64,000 nucleotides of DNA from an uncultured Alphaproteobacteria bacterium (lineage in GTDB: Bacteria; Pseudomonadota; Alphaproteobacteria; Rhizobiales; Methyloligellaceae), in contig CAVVDW010000021.1 in NCBI GenBank assembly GCA_963747175.1, positions 612 to 64,611 of the forward strand, written 5' to 3'. The position numbers were made by a program, and so were the translations under genes. This document shows, in pieces, positions 2,077-56,720 of the stretch. Every line of letters begins with the position of its first letter. Position 1 is the stretch's first letter. The notes beneath the pieces are model-generated. The model saw nothing but the letters and a program-made list of their open reading frames with translations. It searched no databases and was not told the DNA's origin.

Positions 2077-3242
2077 TTACCATGACATTCTCAGAGTCAG
2101 GTAACGGACCGCTTCCACAGTTTCACGCACACTGTCGTCCACGCTGGCACCCGCACTTTCGGCCACCAAATCGGCTACGAGTTCTCTGACCACAGCGTAG
2201 TCGTCTAAGCTCGCTACAATTCTGCCTTGAGCGTCTCGTTGGCGTGCCGCCTGATGCAACAGGGCATGGGTGGTGATGAGCCCTAGAACGGCTGGAATGT
2301 CGCGGCGCAGCCGGAGGGTGACGGGTGGCACTAAACTCGCTAACACATCGGCGAACGGAATTACGACATTGCGATCGCCGTCTTCGAGCCACTCTTGAAG
2401 GCGATGCCACTCAGACAAATCAGGTTCCAAGCGTGACATATTTCCGGTGTAGAGCTAGAGGCCTGAGCGCGTATGACCGCAGAGGTTTGTTCTCGGCTAT
2501 CGTCAATGGGGATGCTCAGCATTTTGGTCTCAAGCTCACTATCGAGGTGGATGGCCGTCGTAGTAACGAGCAAGTTGGTCGGCCCTTCACGTTCGATGGT
2601 CTTCGGCTCAGGACCCTCCGAGCCGCAAACTACCGTCTTGTACTTGATGCGGCCCTCAGTCAGCAGGCTTCTCATGATGTAAGCTTTCCGAAGCCGGCAT
2701 CATTCCGGCCGCTTCAGCCATAACATTGTGCGATGTTCCAAGGGCTCGTCATCGTAGATCAGCGCTTTCTCGCTGGTGCTGGTAACGTCAGAGAACGCGG
2801 AGGAGGGGAAGAAGGCCAGTACTTTGTTGGCTGTGTGGGATTTGCCTGCGCTAGAAGGGCCTTTCACGGCACCAGATATTGGCCTGGTCAGCAGTCAAGC
2901 TCGTCATTATTAGGAAGATCAGCTTCGCGGCCCTCTGTTCACCAACGAAGCCTTGTCTCCCTAGCTCACCCACTAGACGAATCCAGGATGCGAGGTTTGG
3001 AGGCGAGATTGCCACACGCTAGCCAAGCGTCGTCGCCCGTGCTCGGTGCATTCCGGAACATGGCGTTGCGGTGTTGCGTCCTCAGGGGAGGAGAGGCCCA
3101 CCTCCTGTTCCACAGCGTCGACTTCATTGCTGGAGCACTCGGCCACGACTAACTGCGTGCCAAGATCGAGCGCCTGGTTGCAAATTGACCCCGACATGGT
3201 ATATTTGTAGCAGTCGTTACATCTTTGTTGTTCATTGTTCAT
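2077..3242 (-). pseudogene. Multi-frameshifted P-loop NTPase of the primase/helicase-associated type found in satellites and ICEs
   Basis: Walker A VKGPSSAGKS at 2838-2861 (not in ORF track); later pieces REGPTNLLVTTT and VVIPFA...RLRRD...HALLHQAAR lie in different frames; 5' limit approximate. Confidence 0.7.
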
Positions 3243-5282: not shown

Positions 5283-5348
5283 GAAACGCAGGACTTAAAA
5301 TCCTGAGGCCGCAAGGCCGTGAGGGTTCGACTCCCTCCGTCCGCACCA
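5283..5348 (+). pseudogene. tRNA-Leu(TAA) 3' fragment, att scar copy 1
   Basis: CAGGA-CTTAAAA-TCCTG anticodon arm, long variable arm GGCC-GCAA-GGCC, GAGGG-TTCGACT-CCCTC T arm, CGTCCGC-A-CCA end; no 5' acceptor strand GCGGACG. Confidence 0.9.
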
Positions 5349-5407
5349 CAAGATCAAGCGTTATTTGGCATTATCCTACAATTAAAGTCGGCAGAGCCGA
5401 TTTTTTT

Positions 5408-5428
5408 GCTTACCCACGCGCTTACCCA
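5408..5428 (+). repeat. GCTTACCCA direct repeat, possible integrase arm-type sites
   Basis: Copies at 5408 and 5420; a third at 3688. Confidence 0.45.
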
Positions 5429-5715
5429 AAGGCAACAGATCGCGTCGCCCGGGCGAGGCTATTCGCGGTGTGCTTCCCCCAGCCGGAGTCCCACAGTGGG
5501 TCCAGTTGCAACGGGGCCCCATCCATATGGCGAGGGTCTCGGCCGCGAGAGACCATCGAACTTTAGATGAGGCGTAGATGACTGCGGCGACCCGTCTGTG
5601 CTGCTGTTTGGGCAACACCCGCTAACCAACTTCGAGCCAGTCCGCATACGCGGCGGGCAACATATGGTAAATAAGTGGGTGCGCGTCCCTGCGCGCGTCT
5701 CGATAGGGGGAAATC

Positions 5716-6341
5716 ATGAAAAGCCACATATTGGATTGGCGGCTTTGACTGCCATCGGCTTATTGGGCGCTGCCTTTGCCGGAGAGGCCACCAAACCAAC
5801 TCAGATGACGGAGGAGCAGATGGATAATGTGACGGCGGGTGTTCTGCCAGAAGATTCCGACTTCGAGGAAGCGAAGAAGACGGCGCTGCGAAAGATGACC
5901 TACGGCATGTGGGTGCTCACCGCGGGCAAGGGCGACGACCTTGAGGGCTCGAGCGTCACCTGGGTGATGCAGACGTCGTTCAACCCGCCGCTGGTGGTGG
6001 TCGCGGTGAAGGTCGACAGCCACCTCGCGCAAGTGATCGAGCGGCACCAGGCGTTCGCGATTCACCTATTAACCAAGCAGCAGAAGGCGCTCGCCGAGGC
6101 GTTCACCAAGCCGACCACGGTGGGCGGCGGCAAGATCGGCGGCATCGCGTTCAAGCCCGCGCCGGTGACGGGGGCTCCGCTGCTCGAAGGCTTCAGCGCG
6201 TGGGCAGGAGCGAAGGTGACCGACGTGGTGCGCCGCGGCGACCACTCGCTCTTCGTCGCGCAAGTGGTCGAAGCGGGCGTGAGCGACGACAAGGCGCAGC
6301 CGCTGGTGCTGGCCGAAGTCGGCTGGAACTACGGCGGCTAA
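5716..6341 (+). CDS. Flavin reductase-like (FMN split-barrel) domain with an N-terminal signal-peptide-like extension; start needs one extra A
   Basis: YGMWVLT...SFNPPLVVVAV...GAPLL...GDHSLFVAQV...GWNYGG; ATG 5716 after a purine-rich SD enters frame if the A4 run is A5 (MKKPHIGLAALTAIGLLGAAFA). Confidence 0.8.
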
Positions 6342-51293: not shown

Positions 51294-52526
51294 TTATTCG
51301 GCAGGGACGAGCGGGCGCTGCGCGATCTTGGCGGCTTCGGCCGCATTGCGCGGATTGCGATAGACGAAGGGCGCAGGTGGCTTGGCCGCTTCGGCGCGGG
51401 CAAGCGCCACCATCTCGCCGTGATAGGGCGACAGCGCGCAGGCAGGATCCGTATTGCGAGCGTCGCCGGTGATGGCCATGGCTTGGCAGCGGCAGCCACC
51501 GAAGTCGATTTCCTTGAACGCGCAAGAGCGGCAGGGCTCCTTCATCCACTCGGTGCCGCGGAAGGCGTTGAACGCCTTGCCGTTCAGCCAGATGTCGAGC
51601 AGAGGCCGGTCGAGCACATTGTCGAACTCGAGGCCCTTGATCGTCTCGGCCGCATGGCAGGGGAGCACCTTGCCTGCTGGCGTGATGTTCATGAAGCCTT
51701 TGCCCCATCCGCCCATGCAGGGCTTCGGGCGCTTCGCGTAGTAATCGGGCACCACCATGTCGATGGTCAGCACGCCCTTGAGCCGCTCGCGCTCGCGCTC
51801 GACGAACTCGATCGATTCGAGTGTCTGCTCGTAAGTCGGGATCAGGGCGGCGCGGTTGAGATAAGCCCAGCCGTAATATTGCACATGGGCAACCTCGAGG
51901 CGCTGAGCGCCAAGTTTCACCGCAAGCTCGATATAGCGGGGGACATTGTGGATGTTCTGGCGATGGATGGGGGCGTTGACGGTCAGAGGAAGCCCGAGCT
52001 CGGTCACCCAGCGGGCGACGTCGAGCTTCTTTTGTGTGGCGCCGGGATATGCGCCGATCCGCTCGGCGTTTTCGGCGTCGACGTCCTGGAACGAGATCTG
52101 CACGTGATCGAGGCCGCGCTTGGCGAGGTCCTCGAGGCGTGCGCGGTTGAGCGTAACAGCGGCGGTGATCAGGTTCGAGTAGAGGCCCGCCTCTGACGCG
52201 GCCGAGACGATGTCCTCGAGGTCCTTGCGCGCGGTCGGCTCGCCACCCGAGAGGTGCACCTGCAGGATGCCCATCTCGCCGGCCTGTTTCATCACCGAGA
52301 TCCACATCTCGGTCGAGAGCTCCTTGTTGACGCGCTCGAGCTCGATCGGGTTCGAGCAATAGGAGCATTGCAGCGGGCAGCGATGGGTCAGCTCGGCAAG
52401 AAGGCCGACCGGCGCGCGGGCGCATAGCGCCGCCGTCGCGTTCTTGGTGCCGACCACGCCTTCCGTCGGCTCGTCATCGACGGTCACCGACGGACAATGC
52501 CCGTTGCCCTTAAGCTCTTCGCTCAT
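51294..52526 (-). CDS. pqqE: PqqA peptide cyclase (radical SAM/SPASM)
   Basis: [38 protein letters not shown]. Confidence 0.97.
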
Positions 52527-52825
52527 CCCTTTATGTACCCTTTGTCAGCCAGGCCCTGGAGCAAGTCCAGCACGTCGGCGCGGATCACGTCGGCCGGTGC
52601 CGAATATTCCTTGGCCAGAGCCTCGACGATTTCCTCTACGCTTCTCTTGCCGTCGCAGAGCTTGAGCACCGCAACGGCGGTCTGGTCCGGTGTGAGCACG
52701 CGCTCCGGCGCCAGCAACACCCACCGGTCGCGCCCCGCATCGAAGCGGAGCTTGAGATAGGTGGGCAAATGGGGCCGCGTCTCACGACCGACAACGAGAC
52801 GCTCCGGCAATGCGGCGTCGTTCAT
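52523..52825 (-). CDS. pqqD: PqqA-binding chaperone
   Basis: [14 protein letters not shown]...D..A..VL.LCDG. Confidence 0.95.
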
Positions 52826-53559
52826 CACGCTTTGCCCGGAACGAAGGCGCCGGGCGGAATCATGCCCGGATCGACATAAGCGAGATAAAGCGCGTCGAGC
52901 TGCGCCCACAGCACGTTGCATTTGAATCTGAGCGCATCCAGCGCGCCTTGCTGCGCCTCAGGCGTGCGCGCGTTGCGCTTCACGTATTGCAGGGCGAAAT
53001 CGGCATCATCAGGTGCCTGGGTGAGGCGGCGCTTGAAATACGCCATCACCTCGTCGCTGATGAAGTCGTAGCTCTCGAGCATGCCCGAGATGCGCTCCTT
53101 GTGGATCTTCGGCGCGAACAGCTCGGTGAGCGAGGAGGCGACGGCCTCGACCAGGGTCTTCTCCCGCACGAAATTGACATAGGCCTCGACGGCGAAGCGC
53201 GTCTCGGGCAGCGCGCCCTTCATGGAGATGACGTAGTCGCGGTCGAGCCCGAGCCCGTCGGTCAACACCAGCCAGCGCTCGATGCCGCCTTCTTCCTCGC
53301 CATAGCCGTCATGATCCATGATGCGATGAATCCAGTCGCGGCGGAGCTGGCGGTCATGGCAGCGGCTCATCAGGGCCGCGTCCTTGCGCGGCACGGCGGA
53401 CTGATAGCAATAGCGGTTCAGAGCCCAGGCCTGAACCTGGCCCTTGTTGAGCTTCCCGCCATGCAGCAGCTTATGAAACGGATGCTTGTCGTGATAGCGC
53501 TCGGCGCCAATGGCGCGAAGCTCTTGCTCCAGCTCCTCGGGACTCATGATCTTGGTCAC
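52825..53559 (-). CDS. pqqC: PQQ synthase
   Basis: RYH.KHPFH, WALNRY.YQ..VPRKDA, DHDG, SSLTELFAP.IH..R, FKC..LW..LD. Confidence 0.97.
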   Translation of the reverse strand: MTKIMSPEELEQELRAIGAERYHDKHPFHKLLHGGKLNKGQVQAWALNRYCYQSAVPRKDAALMSRCHDRQLRRDWIHRIMDHDGYGEEEGGIERWLVLTDGLGLDRDYVISMKGALPETRFAVEAYVNFVREKTLVEAVASSLTELFAPKIHKERISGMLESYDFISDEVMAYFKRRLTQAPDDADFALQYVKRNARTPEAQQGALDALRFKCNVLWAQLDALYLAYVDPGMIPPGAFVPGKA

Positions 53560-53813
53560 GGCGTTTACCTCTTGTCCTACCCGAGTGGCGATCAGGCACC
53601 TCCCATGGCGGTTCGTGGATGCGACCGCCTTGATGGGCGTCAACTGCTTGGCAGGCCTCTACAATAACTGAAGACCTTGGCAACGGAAACTTGGGGCGTA
53701 ATCCGACGAATGCAATATAGGGCGGCGCGATGAGAGTTGCATGAGCAGCCCATGAACACTGCCTCTATGCCTCATTAAGAAATTCTGAAGGGGAAGTGAG
53801 CGCCAAGAATCAC

Positions 53814-53848
53814 GAACGGCGATCGGGCTTTTCGCCGGATCGCCGTTC
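53814..53848 (-). terminator. Hairpin downstream of pqqA
   Basis: GAACGGCGATC / GATCGCCGTTC 11-bp stem; weak U-tract. Confidence 0.55.
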
Positions 53849-53876
53849 GCTTCGGTTCCGAGATGAGAAGGGCGGA

Positions 53877-53966
53877 TTAAGCGCGATCCAGCTCAGCCGG
53901 CAGGTAGCTCGTCACTTCCATGCCAGACTCCGTCTCCTCGATCGTCGGCTTGTGCCACTCACGCAT
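53877..53966 (-). CDS. pqqA: PQQ precursor peptide, 29 aa, absent from ORF track
   Basis: MREWHKPTIEETESGMEVTSYLPAELDRA; E-x3-Y core GMEVTSY; SD AAGGAG. Confidence 0.93.
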   Translation of the reverse strand: MREWHKPTIEETESGMEVTSYLPAELDRA

Positions 53967-54088
53967 GTAGGCTCTCCTTCCGCGAGTTTGGGCCAAGCAT
54001 GGCCGGTGCGGCCGGCGTTTTGCGAACCCGGATTTCGGCCGAACCGGCTCTGCACTTTCACCATGAGTGCCGACTATGATAATTTTAA

Positions 54089-54126
54089 ATCGTATTTCCT
54101 TATAGGAAGGATAAGGTCACCTTATC
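54089..54126. promoter_or_regulatory. OxyR-like four-box binding site
   Basis: ATCG-N7-TTAT-N7-ATAA-N7-TTAT vs consensus ATAG-N7-CTAT-N7-ATAG-N7-CTAT; includes the palindrome GATAAGGT-C-ACCTTATC. Confidence 0.65.
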
Positions 54127-54129
54127 GTC

Positions 54130-55041
54130 ATGGTCTCGCTTAGGCAGTTGCGCTACCTCGAATCTTTGGCCGAAACGCGCCATTTCGGCCATGCAGCGGA
54201 GGCTTGCGCCGTGAGCCAGCCGGCGCTCAGCATGCAGATCAAGGAACTCGAGGACGAGCTTCGCTTGAGCCTCGTCGAGCGGCGCAAGTCGGGGGTCGAG
54301 CTCACCGACCAGGGCGAGGAGATCGTCAGGCGCGCGCGGACCATCCTCGCCTCCGTGCGCGACCTCGTCGATTACGCCAAGCATCAGGAGGGCGTGCTGT
54401 CGGGCACCCTCAAGCTCGGCGCCATTCCCTCGATCGCGCCCTATCTCTTGCCGGCAGCTTTGCCCGAGCTGCATCGCCGCTTCCCCGCTCTCAACCTGCA
54501 ACTCCGCGAGACGCTGACTGCCAATCTCGTGCGCGAGCTCGTGACCGGCGATCTCGACGTGATCCTCGTCGCGCTGCCGATCGAGGACCCCGAGGTCGAG
54601 ACGCTTTCTCTCTTCGACGACCGGTTCATCCTTGCGACCAAGGCGTCCCCGCGCAACAAGCGGCTCCGTCACGCCAACGCGGACATGCTCGGCGAAGAGC
54701 GCCTGCTGCTCCTCGAGGAGGGCCACTGCCTGCGCGACCAGGCGCTCTCCTACTGCCATATGCTGACGCCTGAGGCGCGCGAGTCGTTCGGCGCCTCGAG
54801 CCTCGCCACCATCGTGCAGATGGTCGCCAACGGCTATGGCATCACGCTCCTGCCGGAGATGGCGATTGCGAGCGAGGTGCATCGCGGCGACATCCGCCTG
54901 TTGCGGTTTCGCGCGCCCGAGCCTAAACGCGAGATCGGGCTTGCCTGGCGCAAGACCTCACCGCGCAAGGCGGACTTTGAGCAGCTCGCCGAGTTGCTGC
55001 GCGATGTCGCCCCGCGACCCGGAAAACACGCGCTCAAGTAG
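54130..55041 (+). CDS. oxyR: OxyR-type LysR regulator
   Basis: LysR HTH; LLLEEGHCLRDQALSYC with both redox cysteines; SL.T.VQMVA.G.G.TLLP. Confidence 0.88.
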   Translation: MVSLRQLRYLESLAETRHFGHAAEACAVSQPALSMQIKELEDELRLSLVERRKSGVELTDQGEEIVRRARTILASVRDLVDYAKHQEGVLSGTLKLGAIPSIAPYLLPAALPELHRRFPALNLQLRETLTANLVRELVTGDLDVILVALPIEDPEVETLSLFDDRFILATKASPRNKRLRHANADMLGEERLLLLEEGHCLRDQALSYCHMLTPEARESFGASSLATIVQMVANGYGITLLPEMAIASEVHRGDIRLLRFRAPEPKREIGLAWRKTSPRKADFEQLAELLRDVAPRPGKHALK

Positions 55042-55157: not shown

Positions 55158-56720
55158 ATGGTGCTCGTGGCGTTGCTGGTCTACGCCTGGGCAGGGGCCG
55201 TCGCTCTCGCGCGGCCGATCTCCGATTTCTATGCGGCGGGGCACGCGATTCCGGCTGCCTATAATGGGATGGCGATCGCCGCCTGCTTCGTCGCGGCGCT
55301 CGCTTACCCAACTCTTGCCGGCGTCCTGGGCCCGGGATGGCAGGGCTCGCTCCTCGTCCTTGCCGGCGGGGCAGGGGCGCTTCTCGCCATCGCTTTCTTG
55401 CTCGCGCCTTACCTTCGCAGGTTTGGCGGCTACACCCTTCCCGATTTCCTCGGCGAGCGCTTCGGCTCCGCCGGCTTGCGGCCACTCGCAGTCGCTGCGG
55501 TCTTTCTCTGCTCGTTTCCCGCACTTGCCGCTGTGCTTCTTGCTCTTGCCGTCATCGTCACCCGCCTCTTCGCGCTCGATCTCCCGAGCAGCCTTGGCGC
55601 GGCCGTGGCGATGCTCTTTCTCTGTACCTTCCTTGGCGGGATGCGCTCAGCGTCTCGCGCTGGCGTTTTGCAATATGCCGTCATGCTTGCGGGCTCAGTG
55701 GCCGCGCTCACCATCCTGCTTTGGCAGCGCCGTGCCACCTCGGGCGCACTCGATGCCAGCGCCCTGCTCGATGCGCTCGCGGCGCTTAACCTCGACATGT
55801 TCGTGGCGCCTGACCGCGTGAACCGGATCGCGCTCGTCTTTTGCCTCGTCGCCGGAACGGCCGCGCTGCCCCATCTCGTGGTGCGCACTTTCACCGCGCG
55901 TTCGATCGAGGAGGCGCGAAGCTCGTTTCTCTACGCCGTGCCCTTGCTCTTGGTGCTCTTCTTCCTTGCCGCGCCGGCCTATGCGCCGCTCTTCTCCGGA
56001 GAGGCTGTGGCGGCCGGCGATACGCTGTCGGGCGTCTCGATGGGGCTCATCGCGACCGCTGCGATCGCGGCCTTGCTTGCGCTCGGAAGCGGGCTCCTCC
56101 TTGCCATGGCGAACGCGATCTCTTACGACCTTTATTACAAGTCGTGGCATCTCACGGCGCCAGCCGACAGGAGGCTTCTCGTCGCGCGCGGTGCAATCCT
56201 GCTCGTGGCCGCGCTAGCAGCTCTCGCCGCGTTTTTTCTCCCACGCACGATGCTCGCATTTGCCGGCGCATCGTTCTCGGTTGCCGCGAGCGCGTTTCTG
56301 CCGGCGCTTCTGCTCGGAGTGTGGTGGAAGCGCGCCAACGGGCAGGGGGCGCTCGCGGGGATGATCGCGGGCCTTATCGTCTGTCTCTATTACATGATCG
56401 TGCCGCGCTATTTCCCTTACGCCTTCTACGAGACCTCGCGTCTCTTCTCGAGCGCATCCGAGCAGCAAGCCTCCGCTTACGACCTGCTGCAGCGGATGTA
56501 CTACCTCGCCGATCCCGCCAACCGGCCGGCGGTGGCCATGCTGTGGGAGCTGAATGTGCGCGCGATCGCCAATTGGTGGGGGGTGAGGGGCATCTTCGCA
56601 GGTGTGTTCGGCGTGCCGGTCGGCCTGGTCGTGACGATCGCCGTCAGCCTGCTCACGCCGGCGCCGTCAGAGGACGTGCAGAGCTTCGTCGAGGATCTGC
56701 GCAAGCCGCAGCCCGCTTAG
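55158..56720 (+). CDS. Sodium:solute symporter, ActP/VC_2705-like and divergent
   Basis: FYAAG..IPA.YNGMA, YTLPDFLG.RF, GTA.LPH...R.FT, LGVWWKR.N..GA..GM. Confidence 0.88.
   Translation: MVLVALLVYAWAGAVALARPISDFYAAGHAIPAAYNGMAIAACFVAALAYPTLAGVLGPGWQGSLLVLAGGAGALLAIAFLLAPYLRRFGGYTLPDFLGERFGSAGLRPLAVAAVFLCSFPALAAVLLALAVIVTRLFALDLPSSLGAAVAMLFLCTFLGGMRSASRAGVLQYAVMLAGSVAALTILLWQRRATSGALDASALLDALAALNLDMFVAPDRVNRIALVFCLVAGTAALPHLVVRTFTARSIEEARSSFLYAVPLLLVLFFLAAPAYAPLFSGEAVAAGDTLSGVSMGLIATAAIAALLALGSGLLLAMANAISYDLYYKSWHLTAPADRRLLVARGAILLVAALAALAAFFLPRTMLAFAGASFSVAASAFLPALLLGVWWKRANGQGALAGMIAGLIVCLYYMIVPRYFPYAFYETSRLFSSASEQQASAYDLLQRMYYLADPANRPAVAMLWELNVRAIANWWGVRGIFAGVFGVPVGLVVTIAVSLLTPAPSEDVQSFVEDLRKPQPA

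Follow-up and report, generated by a model that had tools for sequence, protein, structure and literature searches.

In Escherichia coli, OxyR activates oxyS, and the two genes are divergently arranged around a single OxyR site. In methylotrophs, Methylobacterium extorquens pqqAB provides a known case of a short pqqA transcript. PQQ is the cofactor of methanol dehydrogenase and other alcohol dehydrogenases, on which methylotrophs such as Methyloceanibacter depend. The release of H2O2 by PqqC and the redox activity of PQQ are established; they give a rationale for OxyR control of PQQ synthesis but are not evidence for it. To our knowledge, the regulation of PQQ synthesis is poorly known, and we know of no previous report of oxyR next to pqqA. 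In Rhizobiales, one bidirectional promoter regulated by OxyR serves both katG and oxyR (PMC11975290).

In the window analyzed here, by which we mean the whole 64-kb stretch of DNA, oxyR is instead divergent from pqqA. The features of this region are as follows.

51294–52526, minus strand: pqqE (TIGR02109, 555 bits, above cut-off)
52523–52921, minus strand: pqqD open reading frame (TIGR03859, 75 bits, above cut-off)
52825–53643, minus strand: pqqC open reading frame (TIGR02111, 384 bits, above cut-off)
53812–53850, minus strand: strong hairpin 3' of pqqA (fold energy -35.8 kcal/mol, z = -3.9)
53877–53966, minus strand: pqqA, 29-aa PQQ precursor peptide MREWHKPTIEETESGMEVTSYLPAELDRA (TIGR02107, 32.7 bits, cut-off 20)
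54089–54125, no strand: OxyR-type operator ATCG-N7-TTAT-N7-ATAA-N7-TTAT (box match, shuffles, conservation)
54130–55041, plus strand: oxyR, 303-aa LysR-type peroxide sensor (NCBIfam and PDB matches, Cys pair)

The assignment of pqqA agrees with the E-x3-Y core (EVTSY) of this short peptide and with the presence of pqqC, pqqD, and pqqE downstream. No pqqB was found in the pqq cluster (51294–53966), which runs from pqqA through the hairpin to pqqC, pqqD, and pqqE. It is likewise unlinked in M. caenitepidi Gela4 (PMC6417678), suggesting that its absence from the cluster is normal for the genus. The hairpin probably terminates or attenuates transcription, giving a short RNA with pqqA only.

The top NCBIfam match of the regulator was OxyR PRK11151 (270.5 bits, residues 3–292), with CynR as the runner-up at 152 bits. 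This score falls below the curated equivalog cut-off of 329 for PRK11151. Because the katG-linked OxyR of an outgroup locus from a Rhodoplanes genome (L074) scored similarly on the same profile (264.9 bits), the low score appears to be a property of the order and not the mark of a diverged paralog. The top PDB match was OxyR of Pseudomonas aeruginosa (4x6g, 7e-60), with the GHCLRDQ..C pair aligned, and every one of the top 17 PDB matches was OxyR or an OxyR-like LysR regulator. The full-length LysR architecture also fits OxyR better than other LTTR families. Both redox cysteines, which had been noticed from the sequence alone, were confirmed by alignment to 4x6g: they occur in the context EEGHCLRDQALSYC and align with C199 and C208 of P. 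aeruginosa OxyR, the HCxRDQ-context pair GHCLRDQALSYC falling on 4x6g positions 199 and 208 (position 199 is D in the crystallized sequence). The pair is retained in 79 of 80 related loci. Judged from these alignments, the regulator at 54130–55041 is a genuine two-cysteine OxyR, and a peroxide switch is predicted for it.

The oxyR gene has no recognizable Shine-Dalgarno sequence in the window (54104–54133), and the operator extends to 4 nt before its start codon. This codon is ATG, GTG, or TTG depending on the species, with its position unchanged. Downstream of oxyR, on the same strand and after a 116-nt gap, lies a sodium/solute symporter gene of the VC_2705 family (55158–56720), which is found there in most related loci.

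The original prediction placed 163 bp between the two start codons, and this is exactly what we found (pqqA ATG at 53966 on the minus strand, oxyR ATG at 54130 on the plus strand). It had also described four tetranucleotides at exact N7 spacing, each one mismatch from ATAG/CTAT. These are indeed present at 54089–54125: ATCG (54089–54092), TTAT (54100–54103), ATAA (54111–54114), and TTAT (54122–54125), which together match the consensus at 12 of 16 positions in an 11-bp register with dyad symmetry. The description of the site as lying between the genes holds insofar as it is within the spacer, but it is not in the middle: it abuts oxyR, 4 nt short of the oxyR ATG and 122 nt from the pqqA ATG. 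When up to four mismatches were allowed, 54089–54125 was the only such place in the 64-kb window, and no second operator scored at least 12 bits in the window with a weight matrix built from 59 operators.

We then compared 67 aligned spacers, those of the window and of 66 related loci. The boxes carry 1.79–2.00 bits per position. The stretch between boxes 1 and 2 (TATTTCC) carries 1.61 bits per position, those between boxes 2 and 3 and between boxes 3 and 4 are drifting at 0.97 and 0.85, and the pqqA leader has 1.05. Since the contacts are invariant at an 11-bp phase and the intervening positions are free to vary, 54089–54125 is most simply understood as a protein-binding site. It could be argued that the four boxes are only an AT-rich promoter region to which OxyR does not bind, considering that no box matches the E. 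coli consensus perfectly and that the extra consensus positions T6 and A10 are unmatched. However, the E. coli oxyR–oxyS site itself has ATCG boxes, the boxes here are invariant in at least 59 species while the sequences between them vary, and a site with four or fewer mismatches arose in only 0.26% of shuffled versions of the 163-bp spacer (p ~0.003), or in 0.04% with at most one mismatch per box. Such a chance resemblance is therefore very improbable. We are highly confident that 54089–54125, as predicted from its sequence and conservation, functions as an OxyR operator in the autoregulation of oxyR.

An Rfam scan of 53600–54200 gave only sub-threshold chance matches, so no known RNA element explains the conservation. 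RNA structure as the cause of box conservation was considered separately and rejected (fold z = -1.5 for the operator and -0.7 for the pqqA leader). In two loci (L036 and L054, each at about 5930–6000), the right half of the operator, ATAAG-N6-CTTAT, is doubled in tandem to give six boxes, and the extra boxes move the oxyR ATG ~22–34 nt further off.

A synteny survey had been proposed together with the original prediction. Searching the OxyR protein against species-representative genomes returned 80 loci, nearly all from Methyloceanibacter or close relatives (soil, sediment, and water), which were arranged as follows.

66 of 80 loci: pqqE-D-C-A divergent from oxyR (Methyloceanibacter-like, OxyR identity down to 72%)
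3 of 80 loci: contig end just upstream of oxyR (L007 and L016 with a partial pqqA leader, L024 with the last 9 nt of the spacer)
4 of 80 loci: pqqC facing oxyR directly, without pqqA (L061, L062, L064, and L068)
3 of 80 loci: groEL (L054), irr (L059), or a soxY-like gene (L073) beside oxyR
4 of 80 loci: katG divergent from oxyR (L074 and L078–L080, ~50–55% identity; Rhodoplanes, Bradyrhizobium, and others)

The arrangement of the window recurs in most of these loci, and its boxes are nearly invariant. The divergent partner known from the Rhizobiales unit, katG, is not the partner in this group, where pqqA takes that position here and in the 66 loci. It should be mentioned that a DUF975 gene, the pqq genes, oxyR, the symporter gene, a 206-aa gene, and an S10-type peptidase gene are syntenic in most loci. 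Because this whole surrounding block is conserved, the adjacency of pqqA and oxyR does not appear to be specifically maintained and carries little weight.

The loci in which pqqA is not the neighbor are informative about the age of the operator. The katG-linked outgroup L074 contains AATCGTATTGTC TGAC CGCGTCG ATAA GCTTAGC TTAT CGAC ATG, which has the same design and the same position relative to the oxyR ATG. The operator, together with a TGATAA(T/A) element to its left, is also kept in L054, L059, and L073. On this comparison of sequences, the operator predates the link with pqqA, and the outgroups pair the same kind of site with katG. This bears directly on the possibility that the site serves autoregulation only, that is, an ancestral oxyR site was left behind when the pqq cluster replaced katG, and pqqA is transcribed from a strong promoter of its own, constitutive or controlled by methylotrophy, on which OxyR has no meaningful effect. 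In favor of this possibility, the operator also abuts the oxyR ATG in the katG outgroups and in three loci with other neighbors: L054, with groEL upstream; L059, with irr upstream; and L073, with a divergent soxY-like gene. The synteny of the neighborhood as a whole speaks for it as well. Since both katG-linked outgroups and loci lacking an adjacent pqqA keep the operator, its conservation needs only oxyR autoregulation; because autoregulation explains the conserved adjacency as well, neither proves that pqqA is a target. Pure autoregulation after the loss of a catalase gene had been offered as the alternative in the original prediction. This was half right: katG is found at the pqqA position in the outgroups, and the operator is kept in the absence of pqqA.

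Several of the deviating loci have features of their own. The four loci in which pqqC faces oxyR, where no pqqA ORF was found between the two genes, form a sister clade with a degenerate operator. Another block of ~50 nt is conserved in them at about 5760–5830 (…CATGACTCGTTCATGAACAC.G..TTGA.CCGGATTAA.AACGTCTGAA…). In L073, a gene for a SoxY-related carrier (5291–5797, minus strand) is divergent from oxyR and pqqA is missing. In L059, which also lacks pqqA, the gene upstream of oxyR is irr (2292–2729, plus strand), which encodes an iron regulator.

Two further conserved blocks were observed to the left of the operator, (T)TTGAATATG at 54056–54065 and TGATAAT at 54077–54083, the latter being nearly invariant (0.97). 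They are separated by 11 nt of variable sequence, a length that is fixed in 66 of the 67 spacers. A scan of 53700–54250 for sigma-70 promoters and terminators returned nothing at its thresholds, and the promoters listed below are proposed from comparative conservation.

53967–54053, minus strand: pqqA 5' leader, with a putative start near 54053 at the conserved GCAGAGCC and the ribosome-binding site GGAAGGAGAG before the ATG
54057–54062, plus strand: putative -35 of the oxyR promoter (consensus TTGAAT, TTCACC in the window)
54060–54065, minus strand: putative -10 of the pqqA promoter (CATATT in 37 of 67 spacers, CATGGT in the window), 18 nt from the -35
54077–54085, plus strand: putative extended -10 of the oxyR promoter, TGATAATTT, its direction likewise proposed from conservation
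54084–54089, minus strand: putative -35 of the pqqA promoter (TTGGAA in 43 of 67 spacers, TTTGAA in 17 of 67, TTTAAA in the window)

Read rightward, TTGAAT-N17-TAATTT with its TG extension predicts an oxyR start inside box 1. If so, the operator would cover approximately +1 to +35 of the oxyR transcript, an arrangement typical of classical autorepression. The survival of the TGATAAT element in loci without pqqA fits this rightward reading. On the leftward side, the A at position 2 and the T at position 6 of the -10 are retained in 61 of 67 spacers, whereas the inner positions vary. The plus-strand T at 54064, which pairs with the position-2 A, falls beyond the rightward -35 hexamer, and the leftward -10 accounts better for its conservation. 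In the window itself, the leftward hexamers (TTTAAA and CATGGT) are weak.

Two observations were made on individual spacers. In the L053 spacer, the AATATGGTT(G/A)GCGCCT block, corresponding to the proposed -35/-10 region, is duplicated in tandem (16 bp), and no other of the 67 spacers departs from the fixed distance between the promoter blocks. L059 has CGCATT as its putative leftward -10, without the A at position 2.

The location of the operator relative to the proposed pqqA promoter is of particular relevance to autoregulation only. The leftward -35 hexamer overlaps box 1 by 1 nt, and the operator center would be at about -54 of the pqqA transcript, compared with -56 at E. coli oxyS. A tetramer bound in this position could hardly be neutral for pqqA. 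Moreover, the distance from the operator to the leftward -10 is fixed in 66 of 67 spacers. On the other hand, the consensus TTGGAA-N18-CATATT is adequate for activator-independent transcription, and our literature search found no paper linking OxyR to pqq genes or reporting OxyR control of them. The resemblance of the register to that of oxyS is the strongest argument that bound OxyR affects pqqA, and it depends on the proposed start.

For RNA evidence, we used assembled, unstranded contigs of public mixed-community metatranscriptomes and placed the pqqA start from contig ends. Contigs covered pqqA and its leader in eight runs (X26, X29, X31, X34, X35, X36, X37, and X38). Most of their right ends were at 54021, 54022, 54030 (twice), 54032, 54037, 54038, 54039, and 54044, the end at 54037 being joined to adapter sequence. 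Left ends of the pqqA RNA contigs were at 53821–53873, around the hairpin. In the same eight runs, no coverage was found over the invariant stretch 54077–54125, although RNA of any strain would match there. On L023, which belongs to a species with a consensus promoter, run X44 contained a 175-nt contig (depth 14) ending at the equivalent of 54053. Past an 8-nt strain difference, its end is exactly ...GCTCTGC, 7 nt beyond CATATT, which is the predicted start. Contigs of X46, X47, X53, and X58 on L023 ended 11–31 nt short of the predicted start, with unmatched contig tails counted, and in X53 the depth reached ~900 over pqqA and was zero over the upstream spacer. There were exceptions, including contigs reaching 54074, 54085, 54106, and 54118, a contig of X33 that runs into oxyR, and read-length contigs of depth 2 that cross the spacer in X45 and X51; several of the exceptional contigs came from libraries flagged as uncertain RNA. 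Overall, these contigs point to a pqqA RNA that is short and abundant and whose 5' boundary lies at ~54053 or slightly below. Its high abundance in ordinary soil metatranscriptomes speaks for autoregulation only. Taking the evidence from operator, promoters, and RNA together, we consider autoregulation only a serious possibility, if a somewhat doubtful one.

Run X30 (metatranscriptomic, of uncertain RNA status) contained exact contigs at 54050–54134 and 54105–54267 and no exact pqqA contig. If these contigs are RNA, an oxyR transcript would start well upstream of the predicted oxyR start. Metatranscriptomes of soil, rhizosphere, sediment, freshwater, estuary, ice, and plant samples also contained pqqA RNA of this genus (window 53877–53966; L023 2684–2770), at depths of up to ~900, and this RNA is a potential marker for Methyloceanibacter activity.

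Considering the features above, control of pqqA by OxyR through 54089–54125, beyond autoregulation of oxyR, is plausible, and we lean toward it. A peroxide-responsive pqqA had been suggested in the original prediction. A real OxyR, a conserved operator, and an oxyS-like register speak for this suggestion, which is mechanistically plausible. Autoregulation is sufficient for the existence and conservation of the operator. Under peroxide stress, activation would be the most likely sign of an OxyR effect on pqqA.

The opposite sign should also be considered. OxyR might act as a repressor or brake on pqqA, by means of an extended footprint of the reduced form or through overlapping promoter occupancy, and precursor supply would then fall, or be derepressed, under peroxide; such a brake would shield PqqE, a radical-SAM enzyme sensitive to oxygen, or keep down the H2O2 released by PqqC. 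The two proposed promoters overlap back-to-back, each -10 beside the other's -35, so that occupancy of one side must affect the other. In addition, OxyR has been reported to repress other targets, such as catalase in Corynebacterium (PMC3306370). However, the operator is upstream of the -35 and not over the pqqA -10 or start, which is the geometry of oxyS activation, and we regard a brake as unlikely.

Our preferred model is a bidirectional OxyR control region of the katG–oxyR or oxyS–oxyR type in which pqqA stands where the catalase gene would otherwise be. A single OxyR tetramer at 54089–54125 would lie across the oxyR transcript start and repress oxyR. The operator would end where the leftward -35 begins (TTGGAA-N18-CATATT, start near 54053), and the leftward promoter would make the short, abundant pqqA RNA. 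With the site at approximately -36 to -72 relative to pqqA, where OxyR is also placed when it activates E. coli oxyS, OxyR would most likely adjust PQQ precursor supply to the peroxide status of the cell. More tentatively, the region may be a directional switch across Methyloceanibacter, in which the promoters are overlapping and mutually exclusive and OxyR occupancy shuts oxyR and sends RNA polymerase leftward onto pqqA. PQQ precursor supply would thereby have joined the peroxide regulon, the pqq cluster having captured a catalase control region. Such a switch might constitute an antioxidant response or provide feedback on the H2O2 made by PqqC and PQQ enzymes.

Control of pqqA by OxyR would couple peroxide stress directly to cofactor supply and hence to the capacity for C1 oxidation in methylotrophs that are widespread in soil and sediment. 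It would also be a clear example in which gene replacement (katG to pqqA) gave a conserved regulator–operator module a new target. If the site only autoregulates oxyR, this would be an ordinary OxyR gene with an unusual neighbor.

The locus can be compared with three known systems. It resembles the methylotroph short pqqA transcript in that an abundant short pqqA RNA ends at a hairpin before the next pqq gene, and differs from M. extorquens pqqAB in that no pqqB follows pqqA. With Rhizobiales katG–oxyR (e.g., katG/katA–oxyR of Agrobacterium tumefaciens), it shares the taxonomic order (Hyphomicrobiales/Rhizobiales), an oxyR gene divergent from its target (putative in the case of pqqA), and an operator abutting the oxyR start, and the outgroups L074 and L078–L080 have the katG–oxyR arrangement with a ATCGTATT...GATAAGC...GCTTATCG type site. 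In all 66 Methyloceanibacter-like loci, however, the partner is pqqA-pqqCDE and not katG, and the pqqA-side sequence has no evident homology to the katG side. The E. coli K-12 oxyS–oxyR region was scored by the same four-box rule, with the annotated oxyS 5' end as reference. Its site, ATCG TTCATTG CTAT TCTACCT ATCG CCATGAA CTAT, has two mismatches, compared with four in the window, and ATCG occurs there as boxes 1 and 3 and here as box 1. The E. coli locus has a longer distance from the site to the oxyR ATG (21 nt vs. 4 nt here) and a shorter spacer (95 bp vs. 163 bp), and its divergent product is the regulatory sRNA oxyS, whereas here it is a 29-codon mRNA for the PQQ precursor. In both loci, a single four-box site is located between divergent promoters, near the oxyR ATG and across the oxyR promoter or start region (as proposed here), and the divergent product is a short RNA closed by a hairpin. 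The site spans -38 to -74 of oxyS, with its center at -56, and would span -36 to -72 of pqqA, with its center at about -54, when counted from the proposed start.
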